A stretch of DNA of 64,000 bases from Bdellovibrionia bacterium. Its GTDB lineage: Bacteria > Bdellovibrionota > UBA1018 > JBILEK01. Shown piece after piece: positions 36,801-60,877 of this stretch (position 1 is the first letter of the stretch; the number at the start of each line of letters is the position of its first letter). Under the pieces are notes generated by a model. That model was not told the DNA's origin and made no database searches. It saw nothing but the letters and a program-made list of their open reading frames with translations. The stretch covers positions 834 to 64,833 of the forward strand of contig JBILEK010000003.1 of the NCBI GenBank assembly GCA_044352155.1, given 5' to 3'. Made by a program: the position numbers and the translations under genes.

Positions 36801-39800
36801 ATGACGTCAAAAACAAGCGCGCTACGATCCCTGATCCTGCTGATGGCTTTAAGTGTTTGCGGGTATTCGTCGGCTCTTGCGTCTACGCGTCCTACGATCG
36901 CGGGCCTAAAAACCGTGCTCGTGATTCGCGACAAAAAACAAACACTCGAACGCTTTGCGCAAAACCTTCCTGCGGGCGTCAAAATCGTCTCCTCATTTGA
37001 CGATCTCGTCCTTCTCGAAGGGATGACCTCAGAGTCAACGAAAGACCTCAAAAAGCGTCTTCACGCTCGCTTTATCAAGCAAGGTCAAAACGTCTCCTCT
37101 CCGATCACTGCTCTGAGTGCGCGTCATCGGAGTAATCAAGCTCTCGACGTCCCTCCGCGCCAGGAGACTTCTCACCGATCGCTTGCAGCACTCACGGATC
37201 GATGTCCTGATGGGCGCTCGCGCCTTTGGGCTCAAGAGTCCTTAGATGCACCGTTGTTTGAGACGGCTCTCTCACTGATTGATCCAAAAATTCAGGCGCA
37301 AAGCGCGCGCGTTGCCGTACTGGATTCAGGGTTTGACGCAACTCAAGCTGACGCGTTTAGTGCGATCGGTGGAGTACAGCCTCGTGATGGTGTGCTTGCA
37401 GGAGATCGCAGACCCGTAGGGAGCGTCTCCTGGCCCACGGACTCTAGCAAAGATCCAAGCACTCCGATCACAGGACGCCCCGGATTTGATCCGGGCGGTC
37501 ACGGCACCATGGTCGTAAGCACTATTGCCGCAAACGACGGGCTTGGAATCGCAAAAAACATCGAACTCTCTTTGTATCGAATTACTCCCGAGGGAGATGG
37601 AGGGTCTACTTCTTCAGTCTACATCGACATTGCACTTTGGAGAGCTTGTCAGGAGATGCGCGACCCGGCGGGCCTTACGCTCATTAACCTCTCGTGGGGC
37701 GGTCGCTTAGATGAGCAACAAGTAGAGGATGCGGAAGATCTTAAACTGGATCAAGAAATGGAGCGACGCTTAGCTGAGGCAGGATGCCTTGTTTTTAAGG
37801 CAGCAGGCAATGACAACTTTCGAAACGCTCGACGTGACGAAAAACTTGATGACGCCACTCTACGGGTCGCTGCCACGGATCTCACCCGAAAGCTAAGCTC
37901 TTTCTCAACGCGAGGTGAAGTCTCAGCGCCCGGCAGTGACGTGTGGGTTGTACAAAGTGCGCAGACTAAAGTCTCTGATCGCGCCTCAAGCAAGTGTGAG
38001 GCGTTCACACATCCCTCGCGACCACGTCGATTCATCAATGGGACAAGTTTTGCGGCCCCCTTCATGACTGCGGTTGCCTCTCAGGTCGTGCGCGCGCTTA
38101 AAGCGGGAGATCAGTTTGCAACTCTCTCAACACGCGACCGAATCAAGCTTGTGAATCGAATTTTAAAAGCCTCGACTCTCTCAGGCTCTGTGAATCTAGT
38201 GCGCGCAGTTCAGATCGCTTCTGAATGGAACAAAAATCCGATCCCCGGATCCCCAGATGAGCTTGAAGCTCTCTTAAGCGCAAATCCAAATCCGAGTTGT
38301 AAAGAAGAAAAACCCGTGCGCTGCTCACGCCTGACTGACCCGATCCTTGTTAAGTCGTGCGTACTTCAAAGTCGGCTTCGCGTTGCAACTTGCCCATCGG
38401 TCGATCCCTCTGTGCTTGAGGATCTGGCGATTACTGCTTTCAAGGAGGCAGAGATTGAGCTTGGGCTAAAAGCCGCAGATCTCTTTGCAGAGCACTCAAA
38501 CAACAACAAAGCAAAGCGCTCGATTTTAAAAAGTGGGATCGATCAGTTCGTCGCACGCACTGGAAAAAACGACTATAAAATCGCGCCCGTCCTCACTCCG
38601 AATCTCTTGCGCGCTCTGATTATTCCTTATCTTGAAGCTTGCACGCTCGAGCGCAACTGCGATGGAGAGTTAAGCTTGGTCCTCGTTCGAGCTGCGCTAC
38701 TCTCTCGCTCTATCGCATTTTCACTCTCTGAAGGAGTTGATACCGAGACTGGAGAGGATCGAGGGAGTCGGGATACCGAAAAAGCAATGTCACGACTTTT
38801 CGAGCTCTCCCTTAAAACGATTTCCTTGGATGGAGCTCTTCAAGTCCTTAAAATGCTCCAACGCGCTTCGTTTGGAGACACCCCAAGCCCTGAAGAAATC
38901 CTGAAAGAAAACTCCGAGGATCAAAACTACTTCAGCCGCACTCAGATCCCAAGACTCGCTCCCAGTGTCGTTGTGAGGTTACTGGATGCTTTCATCCGAG
39001 TGACCAAACCTGGGTCCGCAATCAGCGTCGTCTCCCAACGCATGGAAGCGCGCGTTCTCGAAGAAATGGCCAAAAGAAACGACTACTTTCTTGGAAAAAC
39101 CGAAAAGTTTGTCCTCTATGTCGAGCAAATGCCAGAGCGCGGAAGCTTTGATGCTACTCTGGAGCGTAACCGCACAAGAATCGATCTCGCGCTTGAGAGC
39201 GGCCAGTGGCAAGCGCTCGCTCCGATCGAGATGCATTACGCTCTCCGAAATCCCCAAGGATATCCAAAGTGGAAAGAGGCTTACTTAAAAATGCTGATCG
39301 AGGCCTCAGAGCTTGCTCTTCAGGGGAGAGGCTGGGGCGCACAAAACGATAACGAAATCGTGATGCTCGCACTTGAAGAGTGTTTTGCTCCTCGCTCAAA
39401 GCTCTCTCCAAGTGATCAAGCCACTTTACTTGAGTCGCTGAGGAGTGCTCTGTTAAAGGCCAGAAACTCTGATGTGCTCTTAGAGCTTGAGTATGCGGAG
39501 CGGCTCAATCTGAGCATCGGACAAACTGCAACAGAGGGGCTGTTTAGCTCTTACAAAGAAAGAGCCGAAGCCGAAAAAAATGGCCTCACTTTCAAGTCTC
39601 ATCCCCTTTTGAGTCCATCCTTGATGGCTCATGTGCGTTTGCGACTAGCCGCTGGAGTCCTAAGCTCTCGTGGACGGCACCGAAAATTCAATCGTATCCG
39701 CTTTCAGGATTTGATCGAACGCCTTGCGATCGATCACGCAAAAGCGACTCCGATCCAAAGCTCTTCGGACGCAAGCGTGCTCCCACTCACAGCCTTTGAG

Positions 39801-40208
39801 GGATCCCCTCCGTCGCGGCTTCCGGATCCCAAGCGTCCGAGTGGTACAGCGCTCGAGCTCACGCACGAGTCAAGAGCCGAGATCTTGGACTCGCTTGCTG
39901 AGCGACTGATTGTTGAGAGCTTTGAGCAGACACCTAAGGGGCTGCGACTAGGGGTGGACTCGGATCGGCGCTATCTTTTTTATCAAACGGGGCGCTGGTT
40001 TAGAGACGAAGAGGATCGGACTCGATTTTACTTAGGTTTTAATCCGCAAGGAAAGTGGCGCAAAGCTGCACAAAAAATCATCGACACACTTCGAGGCAGT
40101 TATGGTGATTATTCAACGAGTGATGCTGTGTACGCACTTCGCTCGATGATCGAGCGCGTTGAAAAAGTGCACCAATCAAAAACTGGCTGCGTTGATTGTG
40201 GTATCTGA
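36801..40208 (+). CDS. Secreted subtilisin-like serine protease (peptidase S8) with long C-terminal extension (1135 aa); last 9 codons plus stop lie inside the IS left inverted repeat
   Basis: Signal peptide; catalytic triad motifs VAVLDSGFD, GHGTMVVSTIAA, GTSFAAPFMTAVAS. Confidence 0.8.
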   Translation: MTSKTSALRSLILLMALSVCGYSSALASTRPTIAGLKTVLVIRDKKQTLERFAQNLPAGVKIVSSFDDLVLLEGMTSESTKDLKKRLHARFIKQGQNVSSPITALSARHRSNQALDVPPRQETSHRSLAALTDRCPDGRSRLWAQESLDAPLFETALSLIDPKIQAQSARVAVLDSGFDATQADAFSAIGGVQPRDGVLAGDRRPVGSVSWPTDSSKDPSTPITGRPGFDPGGHGTMVVSTIAANDGLGIAKNIELSLYRITPEGDGGSTSSVYIDIALWRACQEMRDPAGLTLINLSWGGRLDEQQVEDAEDLKLDQEMERRLAEAGCLVFKAAGNDNFRNARRDEKLDDATLRVAATDLTRKLSSFSTRGEVSAPGSDVWVVQSAQTKVSDRASSKCEAFTHPSRPRRFINGTSFAAPFMTAVASQVVRALKAGDQFATLSTRDRIKLVNRILKASTLSGSVNLVRAVQIASEWNKNPIPGSPDELEALLSANPNPSCKEEKPVRCSRLTDPILVKSCVLQSRLRVATCPSVDPSVLEDLAITAFKEAEIELGLKAADLFAEHSNNNKAKRSILKSGIDQFVARTGKNDYKIAPVLTPNLLRALIIPYLEACTLERNCDGELSLVLVRAALLSRSIAFSLSEGVDTETGEDRGSRDTEKAMSRLFELSLKTISLDGALQVLKMLQRASFGDTPSPEEILKENSEDQNYFSRTQIPRLAPSVVVRLLDAFIRVTKPGSAISVVSQRMEARVLEEMAKRNDYFLGKTEKFVLYVEQMPERGSFDATLERNRTRIDLALESGQWQALAPIEMHYALRNPQGYPKWKEAYLKMLIEASELALQGRGWGAQNDNEIVMLALEECFAPRSKLSPSDQATLLESLRSALLKARNSDVLLELEYAERLNLSIGQTATEGLFSSYKERAEAEKNGLTFKSHPLLSPSLMAHVRLRLAAGVLSSRGRHRKFNRIRFQDLIERLAIDHAKATPIQSSSDASVLPLTAFEGSPPSRLPDPKRPSGTALELTHESRAEILDSLAERLIVESFEQTPKGLRLGVDSDRRYLFYQTGRWFRDEEDRTRFYLGFNPQGKWRKAAQKIIDTLRGSYGDYSTSDAVYALRSMIERVEKVHQSKTGCVDCGI
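40178..40202 (+). repeat. IS left terminal inverted repeat (IRL)
   Basis: AAAAACTGGCTGCGTTGATTGTGGT; overlaps the last codons of the S8 protease (QSKTGCVDCGI-stop). Confidence 0.65.
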
Positions 40209-40237
40209 GGCCTTAAGTTTGCAACGCATGCGGAGGA

Positions 40238-41161
40238 GTGGGCGCGCATTTTACCTTACCGAAACTTTCTCAGTCCCAGTCGGCGAGAGTCTCCTTTAAG
40301 GGCATAGTGTGTCGATGTCCAGGTGAGCGTCCAGAGAGCGTGCATGCGTTTGGCAGTTTTCTCAGACGCTCTGATCGCACTCGCGTTTTGCGCTATCGGT
40401 GCACTCGATGTAAAAAGTCATTTTCAGAGGCCACGCTCACTCTTGAGTGGCGGCAAAAAAAGCGGCATATCAACGCACCGCTTGAGCATCTGATTTGCTC
40501 TGGGGTGACTTTTCGGCGCTCCGCTCGGATTTTAGGGGTGCATCGCTCAACAACGCTCAGGCGATTAAAGTATCTGGCGCGCAGGGCTGAGCTCTGGCAG
40601 CGGGAGTTTCTTAGCGGTTTTCAAGCGGGCAGCGAAATACAGTTTGATGAAATGGAGTCTTTAGAGCAAACAAAGCTTAAGCCGCTCTCGATTCCACTTT
40701 TAGTAGATAAACAGACGCGAAAGATCCTTGCCTTTGATGTCGCATCGATGCCGGCTAAGGGAGTGCTGGCTTCAATGTCGCGGAAAAAATACGGCCCTCG
40801 CAAAGACGAGCGGAGCGCTGCGATCGAAAAACTGCTCGAGGATCTGAGTCCGCGCCTTACGAGCTGCCAGATCATCCGCTCGGATGATTGCCCCCGATAC
40901 CCAAGGCCCATGAGACGTCATCTGCCGAGACTTAAGCATCTGCGCTGCGCTGGGGGGCGGAGTTGCGTTTTGGGGCTGGGGGAGCTTAAGCGCAAAGTCT
41001 ATGATCCGCTTTTCTCGCTTAATCATACGGCTGCCATGCTGCGCGCCAATCTCAGTCGACTCCAGCGAAGGACTTGGAGTGTTTCGAAAAAGGCCGAGAA
41101 CTTAAAGCATCACATCCAAGTCTACATCCGCTACCATAATGAAGTGCTCACGGCGCTCTAG
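40238..41161 (+). CDS. IS1-family transposase, single fused ORF (zinc finger + HTH + DDE domain), GTG start
   Basis: N-terminal Cys4 zinc finger CRCPGERPE...RYRCTRCKKSF aligns to IS1 InsA. HTH segment is SARILGVHRSTTLRRLKYL. The DDE region and C-terminal LNHTAAMLRANLSRLQRRTWSVSKKAENLKHHIQVYIRYHN align to IS1 InsB ([41 protein letters not shown]). Confidence 0.65.
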   Translation: MGAHFTLPKLSQSQSARVSFKGIVCRCPGERPESVHAFGSFLRRSDRTRVLRYRCTRCKKSFSEATLTLEWRQKKRHINAPLEHLICSGVTFRRSARILGVHRSTTLRRLKYLARRAELWQREFLSGFQAGSEIQFDEMESLEQTKLKPLSIPLLVDKQTRKILAFDVASMPAKGVLASMSRKKYGPRKDERSAAIEKLLEDLSPRLTSCQIIRSDDCPRYPRPMRRHLPRLKHLRCAGGRSCVLGLGELKRKVYDPLFSLNHTAAMLRANLSRLQRRTWSVSKKAENLKHHIQVYIRYHNEVLTAL

Positions 41162-41314
41162 CGCCGATCTTCTTTGTGCCACACACTCCCTCAAGAATCT
41201 CAGTGATTGAGTGTGCAGGACGTGATGGTTTCGTGCGATGGCGCTTCAGGGACGCTCTCTTTAGAGCTTATTGATGAAACTCAGCCCGAATTCGAGCGCG
41301 CATGCGTAATTCAA

Positions 41315-41339
41315 ATCAAAAATGACCACAATCAACGCA
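41315..41339 (-). repeat. IS right terminal inverted repeat (IRR)
   Basis: Reverse complement identical to IRL; encodes the last five codons plus TGA stop (KNWLR-stop) of the minus-strand ccsA. Confidence 0.65.
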
Positions 41340-43035
41340 GCCAGTTTTTACCCTTCACAATTGCAGTACACCCGAGCACATAGGCGAGCTTGATCCCTAT
41401 TCCGATCCACACCCCACCAGATGCGCCACTCGTGAATCCGTACGAGTGCAACCCAACTCCTAAAATAAAGTTCACGCCGTACCACGCCATCATTACCGAC
41501 AAAAAGCTCACCACCGTCCAGACCGCAAACCCAAACCGTCCCACCCAGCCCGCATAGCGTCCATGGAGCACAGCCAGGTAACACAATAGAGCAATGAGAG
41601 CCCAAACCTCTTTGGGATCCCAACCCCAGAATCGACCCCACGAGTAGTCCGCCCACACTCCCCCTAAAATCGTCCCTGCCGCAAGCAGCACGACTCCGTA
41701 CTGCATGGATCGATAAGCAAGTTGATTCATTTGATCGATCGACTCACGAAACGATCTGCCGGTGATCTTTTCTCGCGCAAATTGAAAAAGCGAAACATCC
41801 GCAAGCCCCATCGAGAGCGCAAAAGCGGCGTAGCTGATCGTGATCGTCAGCACATGAACGGTGAGCCAGAGGTTACTTCGCAAAACCGGGACAAGAGGAT
41901 GGATCCCAGGATCCATGACGGCAGGCGCTGCATCAGCAGCGATTAGGCCAAAAGCTGCTAGAAAACATGAGGTCGCAAGCAAAATCAATTGTCGCTGATA
42001 GTAGTAAAGGATGAGCCCAAAAAAGAGCACTCCAAATGCAACCCAAACAATCGACTCATACATATTGCTCACCGGCGGACGACCCGCGATGTAGCACCGA
42101 AACGCAAACCCCAGCGTGTGCACAGCAAACCCCAGCCCCAGAAACACCCAGGCACTTGCGCGCAGGAGCTTTGAGTTTGCTCCCGCCCCGAGAGCCGCCC
42201 ACAAGATGGCCGAGAGCAAATAGAGGATCCACGCCCAAAGAAACGGATGCCACTCATTGTACAGGCGCTCGGCGCGCATCAAAGTGTCTAAGCGTGGGGC
42301 TCCAAGATTTGCGATACTCTGCTCTACTGCTTCACGCGCTTTCTCACTCGCAGACTCAAAACCCGTCTGATCTCCAGAGTAGTAAGCACGGATCATCTCC
42401 GCATAAAGTGCAGGCACACTCGATCTATCCGTCGAGCTTAGCCCCTCCATCCTCGCTTGCGCGAGCGACTTCCAAGGCTCAGGAGAGCGCTCAGGGATCA
42501 CGCCCCAGGCCTCTCCGCTGACTAGAGCTCGAAAGAGACTGATCCCTTGGATCACTCGCTCGAACTCTTTTTCACGCACAGGTTGAAGCGAGGTGCCAGC
42601 GGTCGCATTTTCTTTGCTGATCGTATTCTTTTTTACTCCGGCACTTGCGTACTGCGCGACTGCCGGATTGCTCAGAAGTTCTTCAGGAGAGAATCTCGAT
42701 CTCGACTCATCTAAAAGCAGCTGGCGCTTGACTTCTTGGTGGTTGATTTTAATGAACTCGCGCTTCTGCCATACTTCGGGCGCTGAAATGAGTGAAAACA
42801 TCAAATCAACCGGGTCCCAACCCTGATACGTCCGCGATGAAGTGAGCGAAAGAACAACTTCACGCGCATAGGTATCAAATGGCTTAAAGCGGCCGCCCGC
42901 CTGCACAGGGATCAAACCTGCTGGACCAAAGTTCCACGTCTTGCGTCGTTCTCCGGCTTCTGGACGAGACTTTTCTTGCGCATTTGCAAAAGGCACTGAC
43001 AAAACGAGCGCAATCAAGAGACCGAGAGTTTTCAT
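41332..43035 (-). CDS. ccsA: Cytochrome c-type biogenesis protein CcsA/ResC (system II heme lyase component)
   Basis: WGWDPKEVWAL tryptophan-rich WWD motif, conserved His residues, polytopic; follows ccsB. Confidence 0.85.
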   Translation of the reverse strand: MKTLGLLIALVLSVPFANAQEKSRPEAGERRKTWNFGPAGLIPVQAGGRFKPFDTYAREVVLSLTSSRTYQGWDPVDLMFSLISAPEVWQKREFIKINHQEVKRQLLLDESRSRFSPEELLSNPAVAQYASAGVKKNTISKENATAGTSLQPVREKEFERVIQGISLFRALVSGEAWGVIPERSPEPWKSLAQARMEGLSSTDRSSVPALYAEMIRAYYSGDQTGFESASEKAREAVEQSIANLGAPRLDTLMRAERLYNEWHPFLWAWILYLLSAILWAALGAGANSKLLRASAWVFLGLGFAVHTLGFAFRCYIAGRPPVSNMYESIVWVAFGVLFFGLILYYYQRQLILLATSCFLAAFGLIAADAAPAVMDPGIHPLVPVLRSNLWLTVHVLTITISYAAFALSMGLADVSLFQFAREKITGRSFRESIDQMNQLAYRSMQYGVVLLAAGTILGGVWADYSWGRFWGWDPKEVWALIALLCYLAVLHGRYAGWVGRFGFAVWTVVSFLSVMMAWYGVNFILGVGLHSYGFTSGASGGVWIGIGIKLAYVLGCTAIVKGKNWLR

Positions 43036-44471
43036 ATTTTCCTCGCTTTTGAACGACTTTTTTGTTCGCGCAAGCGCACGTAAAACAAGAGAACGGAACC
43101 TAAGACAATGAGAAAAGATCCTAAGTACTTTAAAAATCGTCCTGGATCTCGATTCACAGAGAGAACGCTTGTGATCGGACGTGGCTCTGCTGGAATGTAG
43201 CTGGACTGGTAGAACGTGTAGCCCCCGTACTTGAGTGGCTCGTTCATACTGATGCGCACAGGCGAGAGCATGCGACCATCCTCTGCGCGGACGCGCACAA
43301 GTGAGCTATACTCCATTGGGTTTCGAGTGCCTGCGTAGTGATCGATTCGAAATTCCTCAAGGTGAATCGAAAAAGGCAAGCGCTGCTTTGCGGGCACGTA
43401 AGAGACTTCGACTGAGGCTTTTTCGGTATTGAACTGAGTGCGATCGCCAAGACCAAGCCATTTTTCGACCCTCTGTACACCTGCCCCCCCCACGACGAGG
43501 ATTGCACCTGTAGGAGCATCAGCACCATACTGGATGCGGGCCCGCGTGAAACTTGAAGTGTTGATCGCGTCAGGGATCCACTCTCGGAGTAGAATTTTCA
43601 TTCCCATCCAACCGGGATCAAGCTCGCGACCGGGGATTTGATCTTTCTGAAGGACTCCGCTCTTAACGCCCGCCTCTCCCGAGCTGATCCGATACGCAAG
43701 CGCGCCATCAGACAGAGCACGGATCTCAAACTTGCCGCGCTCATGGGCCTGAGACTCTGGAAAGCTCTTGGCTCCAACTGGATGCAAGATAAACTGCGCA
43801 GGCCCAAAGCTCACATAGCTCCACTCGGCCTCCCCACCCCAAAGCCAGAGTGTTTGGTTGAGATCCATCGGACCACCCTGAAGAACAAACTGAAGCGCAG
43901 GACCTCGACGCTCACCCCGCGCGATCGCTTCAGGAGTGATGGGTGAGAACTGAAAAAACGGCTCCGCACGAGAGAGATACTCTTTGATCTCAAGATCGTA
44001 CTCAGGGATCGTACGCGGCGAGTACTTTCGATGTGGCGGCAACCAAGGAAACTGAAACGACGTCGCCTGAACCGGTGAGCGCGAGAGCTCACGCACTTGC
44101 ACGAGCGCGTTCTCACTTTCAAGCCATGGCTGCGCCTCTCCCTCACTGACAACTAGGTTTGCATCCACGCCTGAGAGCTGCGTCCAAAAAGAGCCCGCAA
44201 GCAAAAGCAAAATCCCAAGATGCGCGAGCAGAAATGGGGTGTGCCTCTTTCGCCAAGGCCAGCGACTGAGCGCGACGACGAGGATGTTGAGACCCAAGAG
44301 CGCGAGCAATGCATTGAACCAGGGAGCGCGATAGACCCAGTATTTTCCGGTGGGAATATCGTAAATCGACTCAATAAACGTCGCAGCCGCCAGAGCTGCT
44401 GAGAGCCCAAGAATCACGATGACCGCGAGCTTGAGCGAGGCTAAGAAACGAAACACCCTTTGCGCCAACAT
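43032..44471 (-). CDS. ccsB: Cytochrome c biogenesis protein CcsB/ResB
   Basis: N-terminal TM segments with large periplasmic domain and C-terminal TM, ResB-like N-terminus LKLAVIVILGLSAALAAATFIES; 4-nt overlap with ccsA. Confidence 0.8.
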   Translation of the reverse strand: MLAQRVFRFLASLKLAVIVILGLSAALAAATFIESIYDIPTGKYWVYRAPWFNALLALLGLNILVVALSRWPWRKRHTPFLLAHLGILLLLAGSFWTQLSGVDANLVVSEGEAQPWLESENALVQVRELSRSPVQATSFQFPWLPPHRKYSPRTIPEYDLEIKEYLSRAEPFFQFSPITPEAIARGERRGPALQFVLQGGPMDLNQTLWLWGGEAEWSYVSFGPAQFILHPVGAKSFPESQAHERGKFEIRALSDGALAYRISSGEAGVKSGVLQKDQIPGRELDPGWMGMKILLREWIPDAINTSSFTRARIQYGADAPTGAILVVGGAGVQRVEKWLGLGDRTQFNTEKASVEVSYVPAKQRLPFSIHLEEFRIDHYAGTRNPMEYSSLVRVRAEDGRMLSPVRISMNEPLKYGGYTFYQSSYIPAEPRPITSVLSVNRDPGRFLKYLGSFLIVLGSVLLFYVRLREQKSRSKARKI

Positions 44472-60755: not shown

Positions 60756-60830
60756 TGCCGGTGTAGCTCAGTGGTAGAGCAGCGCTTTCGTAAAGCGCAG
60801 GTCGTCCGTTCAATCCGGATCACCGGCTCC
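60756..60830 (+). tRNA. tRNA-Thr (anticodon CGT)
   Basis: Cloverleaf folded by hand: acceptor GCCGGTG/CACCGGC, D arm GCTC-AGTGGTA-GAGC, anticodon arm GCGCT-TTCGTAA-AGCGC, T arm GTCCG-TTCAATC-CGGAT, discriminator T, encoded CCA. Confidence 0.9.
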
Positions 60831-60877
60831 AGTGGAAGGTCTCTTATCTCCTCTCTTACTCTGTTTTTAATCGAGTT

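Follow-up and report, generated by a model that had tools for sequence, protein, structure and literature searches.

The DNA analysed here, referred to below as the window, is a stretch of 64,000 nucleotides (nt) of a Bdellovibrionia bacterium (contig JBILEK010000003.1, positions 834 to 64,833). Within it, at positions 40178-41349 of the plus strand, lies an insertion sequence of 1172 base pairs (bp) that is bracketed by a pair of inverted repeats identical at 25/25 nt and encloses a single transposase open reading frame (ORF). The element separates two convergent genes, one for an S8 protease and the other for the cytochrome c biogenesis protein CcsA, and both genes run into the element and terminate there. 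We conclude that this is very probably a genuine insertion sequence of a single-ORF, IS1-related clade, which inserted at the junction of the two convergent genes and gave both genes new ends, most likely with a small adjacent deletion at the time or afterwards. The features of the locus are listed below.

36801-40208, plus strand: S8 (subtilase) protease gene (Pfam Peptidase_S8, expect value (E) 2e-26)
40178-41349, plus strand: whole insertion sequence, delimited by its perfect 25-nt inverted repeat, by homology to the insertion-free locus L004 from 41350 onward and by the tips of related elements
40178-40202, unstranded: left terminal inverted repeat, AAAAACTGGCTGCGTTGATTGTGGT, which fits the family-wide terminal consensus (~60 loci)
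40238-41161, plus strand: transposase ORF, uninterrupted, 307 amino acids (aa) from GTG 40238
41325-41349, unstranded: right terminal inverted repeat, reverse-complementary to the left repeat at every position
41332-43035, minus strand: ccsA/ccsB gene for system II cytochrome c biogenesis (Cytochrom_C_asm, E 5e-34; TIGR03144, E 1.5e-47)

Element ends and the genes they cap

The left terminal inverted repeat of the element is the 25-mer AAAAACTGGCTGCGTTGATTGTGGT at 40178-40202, and its exact reverse complement is found at 41325-41349. A preliminary description of this DNA had recognised the perfect pair but placed the right arm 10 nt too low, at 41315-41339. The span that it gave for the element, 40178-41339, is accordingly correct at the left end but cuts through the right arm at 41339, the true end being 41349. 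No further match to the 25-mer was found in the window when up to three mismatches were allowed, and 100 shuffled sequences likewise gave none (expected 0.00). The repeat fits the terminal consensus of the clade, (T/A)AAACTGGC(C/T)...TG(T/G)(T/G)G, as established from ~60 loci, and differs little from AAAACTGGCCGCGTTGAGTGAGT, the repeat found in the relatives L164 and L165 (68% identical). Because it matches the conserved ends of the clade, the 25-mer is an element end and not a host repeat, the possibility that had been named as fatal to the original proposal; the pair is the sole one in the window, and the same ends bracket ~60 homologous transposase genes elsewhere. By the rule that holds across the family, the tip proper may lie 1 nt further in on either side, at 40179 and 41348. 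An exact search of metagenome contigs with a 22-mer of the repeat returned no match and is uninformative, as the collection does not hold the sample of L003 (a second assembly of this locus, from a JGI metagenome), and L003 does carry the 22-mer.

Both neighbouring genes end in codons that belong to the element. The last nine codons of the protease gene (KTGCVDCGI) and its stop, together 40179-40208, are element-encoded, so that the protein ends ...QSKTGCVDCGI; the ORF at 36801-40208 confirms the read-through into the left arm that had been described previously. The protease stop codon (40206-40208) does lie 4 nt beyond the inner edge of the repeat, but this had been reported as 4 nt inside the element, where the distance is in fact 29-31 nt. 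On the opposite strand, the last five codons of ccsA (KNWLR) and the stop (41332-41349) are encoded by the right repeat, with the stop codon at 41334-41332, in agreement with the earlier account and with the ORF at 41332-43035. The two tails differ because the genes enter the identical repeat in different frames. Two of the three frames leading into the repeats meet stop codons, and the third remains open for more than 100 nt.

The closest orthologous locus free of the insertion is L004, in which CcsA is 85% identical and the gene order is the same. The two junctions read as follows.

L004 (no element): protease ...YVDKAQLSR, stop; spacer of 4 nt between the stops; ccsA ...AIVKGAFIKPKRA, stop
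Window: protease ...VEKVHQS, then KTGCVDCGI from the element, stop; spacer formed by the element; ccsA ...AIVKG, then KNWLR from the element, stop

The protease aligns with its L004 ortholog without a gap over 232 aa at 63% identity, up to ...VHQSK in the window and ...AQLSR at the stop of the ortholog. The CcsA ortholog P0122 (85% identical) ends ...AIVKGAFIKPKRA where the window protein ends ...AIVKGKNWLR. DNA homology between the window and L004 resumes exactly at 41350, and the 22-mer of the repeat is absent from L004. The native sequence that was replaced amounts to ~1 codon and the stop for the protease gene and to eight codons and the stop for ccsA, and ~38 nt of an L004-type junction have no counterpart in the window. 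Since L004 possesses different native tails and has its two stops 4 nt apart, it is the element ends that supply both tails in the window. The comparison with this ortholog, which the preliminary description had recommended, thus bears out its proposal that the insertion exchanged the native 3' ends of both convergent genes.

Several other observations concern the surrounding genes. The KTGCVDCGI tail holds a CxxC motif, which is probably incidental. Next to ccsA, resB (ccsB) at 43032-44471 overlaps it by 4 nt, the two forming a system II cytochrome c biogenesis pair, and the relative L004 (85% identical) has kept the gene order from an acyltransferase gene as far as ccsA. A tRNA-Thr gene (anticodon CGU) at 60757-60831 is the sole Rfam or ARAGORN match in the window.

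The transposase and its clade

Although the ORF is open from GTG 40238, the transposase probably starts at GTG 40307 (284 aa), where one NCBI gene call begins and about where the related proteins begin. An alternative public gene call in another assembly starts at GTG 40340 and yields 273 aa. Look-ups of the 307-aa version and of P0007 returned no record. Residues are numbered below according to the 307-aa version.

The NCBIfam IS1 model NF033558 matches residues 50-172 of the window protein with an E of 1.6e-11 and 44.5 bits, against a cutoff of 100, and the Pfam model DDE_Tnp_IS1 (PF03400) matches the C-terminus only, at 14.2 bits against 24.1 (E 0.057). NF033558 is significant for 30/30 members of the family alignment (best E 4.5e-17). 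When that alignment was compared by hhalign with InsA of Escherichia coli, the N-terminus (residues 13-110) matched with a probability of 95.4% and an E of 2e-8, and the homologous portion comprises the zinc ribbon and the helix-turn-helix. An AlphaFold model built from 113 homologues reached a predicted local distance difference test score (pLDDT) of 92 and a predicted template modelling score (pTM) of 0.88. The catalytic domain has an RNase-H fold and two aspartates at the IS1 positions. These residues, D137 and D216, align with the catalytic aspartates of InsB and of the single-ORF IS1 transposase of Emticicia. Kinship of the catalytic domain with IS1 is indicated by the NCBIfam model, by this three-way alignment with a bona fide IS1 transposase and by the fold.

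The third position of the active site aligns less simply. An ungapped Pfam mapping sets residues 265-300 on InsB 129-164, so that E126 of InsB falls on N262, an invariant residue that precedes the likewise invariant R269 by seven positions; a gapped alignment places the IS1 glutamate opposite A265. The clade also has two insertions of its own, marked by the invariant motifs MPAKG..KKYG.R and GQGELK..DP.F, and the GQGELK loop, absent from the IS1 transposases of E. coli and Emticicia, contains the invariant E249. Judged from the alignments, the third active-site residue may be N262, as in DDN-type IS1595 elements, or E249 contributed by the new loop. The protein had originally been read as a 307-aa ORF with a zinc finger, a helix-turn-helix and an InsB-like DDE region; the ORF, the InsA-like head and two aspartates stand, but the canonical glutamate does not.

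The window element belongs to a large clade. More than 2665 homologues were retrieved, almost none of which is named or has a Pfam domain. A look-up of clusters at 50% identity gave 562 with E <= 1e-30. Species-representative genomes contain at least 577 loci, and Bdellovibrionia, Bacteriovoracia and Oligoflexia account for nearly all of these genomes. Inverted repeats of the clade consensus flank the transposase gene at ~60 loci, and the elements of most relatives are ~1000-1040 bp long. Copies that are 85-99% identical occur in at least seven genomes or metagenome samples, with the similarity ending at the repeat tips, and P0246, the closest relative, is present at two different sites. Protein searches of genome and metagenome contigs gave no relative of the transposase above 51% identity. 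Clean target duplications of 9-10 bp are found at 10/60 loci whose repeat tips are well defined, compared with 0.04-0.5 expected, and abut the tip 2 nt outside AACTGG.

The family is unrecognised by current annotation. Its members are labelled "hypothetical protein" or lack a Pfam domain, and mobile DNA in Bdellovibrionota is therefore under-counted. It is possible, if doubtful, that the clade constitutes a large group within the IS1/IS1595 superfamily that has yet to be described, largely restricted to predatory Bdellovibrionota and distinguished by a single ORF, two insertions, (T/A)AAACTGG tips, a non-canonical active site and mostly duplication-free copies. If so, duplication-free copies and tips that serve as the stops of neighbouring genes would suggest that in these compact genomes transposition has an outcome of its own, or that selection filters the insertions in a special way. 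Our search of the literature on Bdellovibrio insertion sequences and on IS1/IS1595 found nothing relevant. The absent canonical glutamate and the frequent absence of duplications also pose small questions for transposase biochemistry.

Placement between convergent genes recurs among the relatives: in L013 and L026, and also in L015, L024, L077 and L002, the element lies between convergent long ORFs, and in L013 and L026 the stop codon of both of these ORFs, TAA or TGA, spans the element tip. Across the family, 17/36 long inward-reading ORFs stop at the tips, which is not significantly above the 1/3 expected and gives no evidence of a stop-codon preference there. Two contigs of the Logan collection open with a Nextera/Tn5 mosaic-end adapter, AGATGTGTATAAGAGACAG (L001 at positions 1-19 and L164 at positions 4-23), and L001 ends with the start of the adapter's complement. 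Both are adapter-contaminated contigs resembling single fragments, and L001, which had seemed to be an element-only contig, was set aside as uninformative on element ends because adapter sequence flanks it.

The non-coding ends of the window element contain the following candidate features.

40225-40232, unstranded: left subterminal palindrome CGCATGCG, contained in the 9-mer ACGCATGCG, which begins 47 nt from the tip
41151-41166, plus strand: terminator-like G+C-rich hairpin that covers the stop codon of the transposase, with a T-rich run behind it (consensus scan)
41299-41306, unstranded: right subterminal palindrome CGCATGCG, again contained in ACGCATGCG, which is oriented to its tip as on the left and lies 43 nt away from it

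The paired palindromes had been put forward as possible transposase-binding sites. They are indeed present, at positions one base away from those first given, but nothing comparable was found in 60 more distant family loci. The 8-mer CGCATGCG has six copies in the window, two of them in the element, and a related sequence, GGCGCACATGCGCC, lies ~58 nt inside the right tip of the closest relatives, L164 and L165. Accordingly, we rejected the palindromes as a family-wide binding site, the resemblance being loose even in those relatives, and any role in transposase binding at this copy is speculative.

The hairpin at 41151-41166 is weak evidence for a terminator, as it folds with unremarkable energy (z -1.2). 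When the two ends were scanned for promoters and terminators and folded as RNA, nothing rose above background, and the scan found no promoter-like site on the transposase strand in the left end. The right non-coding end, ~160 nt from the transposase stop to the right repeat (41162-41324), is longer than in most relatives. A 58-aa ORF at 41207-41383 exits through the right repeat and is probably spurious.

Insertion history and alternative explanations

We consider it most likely that the insertion was followed or accompanied by a small adjacent deletion, because ~38 nt of the native junction are missing and no intact target duplication is present. By analogy with IS1, the 1.17-kb element would be moved by its transposase through binding to the conserved 25-bp terminal repeats, and would have landed where the protease gene and ccsA converge, at a site like that of the insertion-free relative with its stops 4 nt apart. 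The small deletion would have arisen beside the element, with the insertion or after it, an outcome known for IS1-type elements. A convergent-gene junction has no promoter and is among the few harmless sites in a densely coding genome. Both the protease and ccsA probably remain functional, the lost native tails being short and poorly conserved. CcsA tails past the last membrane helix range from 3 to 30 residues in 40 homologues, and because they vary in length, loss of the native ccsA tail is plausibly harmless. Continued function of the two genes would in turn account for the tolerance and apparent fixation of the insertion. The transposase, which starts 29-98 nt past the protease stop on the same strand, could be expressed by read-through from the protease gene.

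A number of points weigh against this account. As the preliminary description had correctly noted, no direct repeat flanks the element, and this copy thus has no intact target duplication. Nor have 50/60 of the family copies, among them L015, L017 and L019 (all of one genome) and the short Logan contig L164. The scores of the window protein against the curated IS1 models are below threshold, and membership of the IS1 family is distant. The catalytic part showed no significant match when the family alignment was compared by hhalign with E. coli InsB alone (E 0.23), and the canonical IS1 catalytic glutamate (IERHN/VERVN) is absent at the aligned position. The window protein also departs from a 98%-conserved position of the GQGELK motif (Q247L), and expression or mobility of this copy finds no support. 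Lastly, the sole close insertion-free comparator is 85% identical in CcsA and 63% in the protease tail, so that the ancestral junction and the size of the deletion are estimates. Repeats that led to chimeric assemblies, events of a replicative or intramolecular kind and a pathway free of duplication are all possible reasons for the lack of duplications in the 50 family copies.

Traces of a duplication might nevertheless be preserved in one pair of 9-mers at the flanks of the element.

40170-40178, unstranded: candidate degenerate left copy of a 9-bp duplication, CACCAATCA, with its partner TACCCTTCA at 41349-41357

At the geometry standard for the family, CACCAATCA and TACCCTTCA match at 6/9 positions, for which chance gives 1.2% per test, and fifteen combinations of offset and length were inspected. 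The native 9-mer of L004, CACCCTTCA, matches the left flank at 7/9 positions. The match may represent a decayed duplication plus a separate deletion, or coincidence. If the former were correct, the element would have inserted canonically, with a 9-bp duplication in the ccsA tail at CACCCTTCA, and a later deletion of ~47 nt to the left of the element would have been followed by drift of the left duplicate; the element itself would then have caused no deletion. The ten family loci that have clean 9-10-bp duplications at the same geometry lend this some plausibility, but three substitutions in 9 nt would be needed while 48-50 nt of repeats stayed perfect, the deletion would have to end exactly at the edge of the duplicate, and the left 9-mer can just as well be taken for native protease sequence, its codons H-Q-S lining up with Q-L-S in the ortholog. 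We therefore regard this sequence of events as improbable. A somewhat better case, although still an unlikely one, can be made for an immobile relic or for domestication of the element, as an old insertion fixed as a single copy that has lost transposition and whose repeats are identical owing to a coding role or to chance. In a collection of ~15 billion proteins, every transposase at least 90% identical to that of the window comes from this locus, on contigs of 37.7, 85.8 and 9.3 kb from three assemblies, and the same insertion is thus present in three independent assemblies. The 90% cluster of CcsA consists of one sequence, so that no insertion-free allele was sampled, and the passage of short-read assemblers through the element points to a single copy. 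Between L003 and the window, 10/9306 positions differ, one of them inside the element; the element (1/1172) and its flanks (9/8134) have diverged at the same rate, so that the insertion dates back to the separation of these populations. In G+C content the element is equal to the host, and Q247L and the missing target duplication fit a relic as well. These data give no support to the earlier view of the copy as recent and possibly active. Loss of transposition is nonetheless at odds with an unbroken ORF in which only 2 of 78 highly conserved columns deviate (family median 1), and with repeats that are identical at 25/25 positions and fit the family consensus. A coding role does not readily explain that identity, since the coding part amounts to no more than 18 nt in the right repeat and 24-25 nt in the left, in different frames, and selection on the protein level for dispensable tails would not easily hold both arms identical. 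Judged by its intact ORF and perfect repeats, then, the element looks intact and functional, without sign of recent movement.

Two further explanations would deny that the locus holds an insertion sequence, or that the junction is real. The 25-nt repeats might have belonged to the host beforehand, as the arms of a hairpin or terminator or as members of a repeat family; bidirectional terminators are common between convergent genes, and the scan found a weak terminator-like hairpin within the right arm on the minus strand. However, the folding energy of that hairpin is unremarkable (z -1.6), the repeat occurs neither in the insertion-free ortholog nor elsewhere in the window, and the same ends flank homologous transposase genes in ~60 unrelated contexts and in the closest relatives. 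The terminal sequence at the ~60 transposase loci and its absence from L004 effectively refute a host origin of the repeats. Just as little can be said for an assembly artefact, in which two loci would have been joined chimerically through a repeated element. Of the family copies in metagenome-assembled genomes, most lack duplications, a pattern that chimeric joins through multi-copy repeats could yield, but three independent assemblies agree on the same structure at 99.9% identity, and the flanking genes are direct neighbours in the insertion-free L004. On the strength of the concordant assemblies and of this neighbour order, we rejected the artefact as exceedingly improbable.

The capping of two convergent genes by a single insertion sequence is real and neat, yet insertion at the end of a gene would ordinarily have this result. 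The locus offers a worked example of how an insertion is absorbed harmlessly, in which ends with stops in two of three frames swap the dispensable tails of convergent genes.

Comparison with IS1 and IS1595

The best known relative is IS1 of E. coli, and we compared the window element with IS1A (insA/insB; NC_000913 19796-20563). The zinc ribbon and helix-turn-helix of InsA are homologous to the N-terminus of the window protein. In addition, the two catalytic aspartates align, with SD..P.Y against TDGWPLY, and the C-terminal helix motif LRAN..RL.RR...SKK is aligned between the clade and IS1. The terminal inverted repeats are alike in size (~23-25 bp), and target duplications of the clade, where made, are of 9 bp, the usual length for IS1. 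IS1 is also known for deletions adjacent to itself, in keeping with the ~38 nt missing at this site.

In contrast, insA and insB of E. coli IS1 are joined by a -1 frameshift, whereas the window element and all of its aligned relatives have one uninterrupted ORF. E. coli IS1 is 768 bp long compared with 1172 bp for the window element, and it is without the two clade insertions (MPAKG...KKYG.R and GQGELK...DP.F). Its glutamate (IERHNLNLR, seven residues before R) faces N262 or A265 in the window protein. The tips differ as well, being (T/A)AAACTGG in the clade and GGT in E. coli IS1.

A search of 72,556 plasmids gave as sole matches two genes annotated "IS1 family transposase", at 23-27% identity. 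The closest annotated relative is WP_015026368.1 of Emticicia oligotrophica plasmid pEMTOL03 (E 4e-5 over 97% of the query). Like the window protein, it is encoded by a single ORF and consists of a zinc ribbon, a helix-turn-helix and a catalytic domain, and it shares with the window clade an NH motif just before the catalytic helix. However, the Emticicia protein passes the curated IS1 model with 165.8 bits (cutoff 100), where the window protein scores 44.5, and it keeps the E(7)R motif and has neither clade insertion. The Emticicia element is ~770 bp long with GGTATTT tips. Single-ORF IS1 elements include the ISMhu11 group of ISfinder.

Resemblance to IS1595 is confined to particular features. 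The IS1595 model NF033547 matched 2/30 family members (best E 6.7e-4) and gave no match to the window protein. The zinc-binding N-terminal domain NF050000 of NCBIfam, which is defined for IS1 and IS1595, matches 3/30 members, and a domain of this type is common to IS1595 and the window clade. Several IS1595 groups reportedly carry an asparagine in place of the catalytic glutamate (DDNK motif), which N262 of the window protein, seven residues before R269, resembles. Duplications made by IS1595 elements are typically 8 bp, compared with 9-10 bp in the window clade.

The designation as an IS1-family element in the preliminary description is consequently sound as far as an IS1-related insertion sequence is meant, but certified membership is not sustained, given the sub-threshold scores, the lack of the canonical glutamate, the one ORF and the other tips. 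On the sequence comparisons presented here, the element appears to be a distant relative of IS1 that belongs to a distinct clade of Bdellovibrionota.

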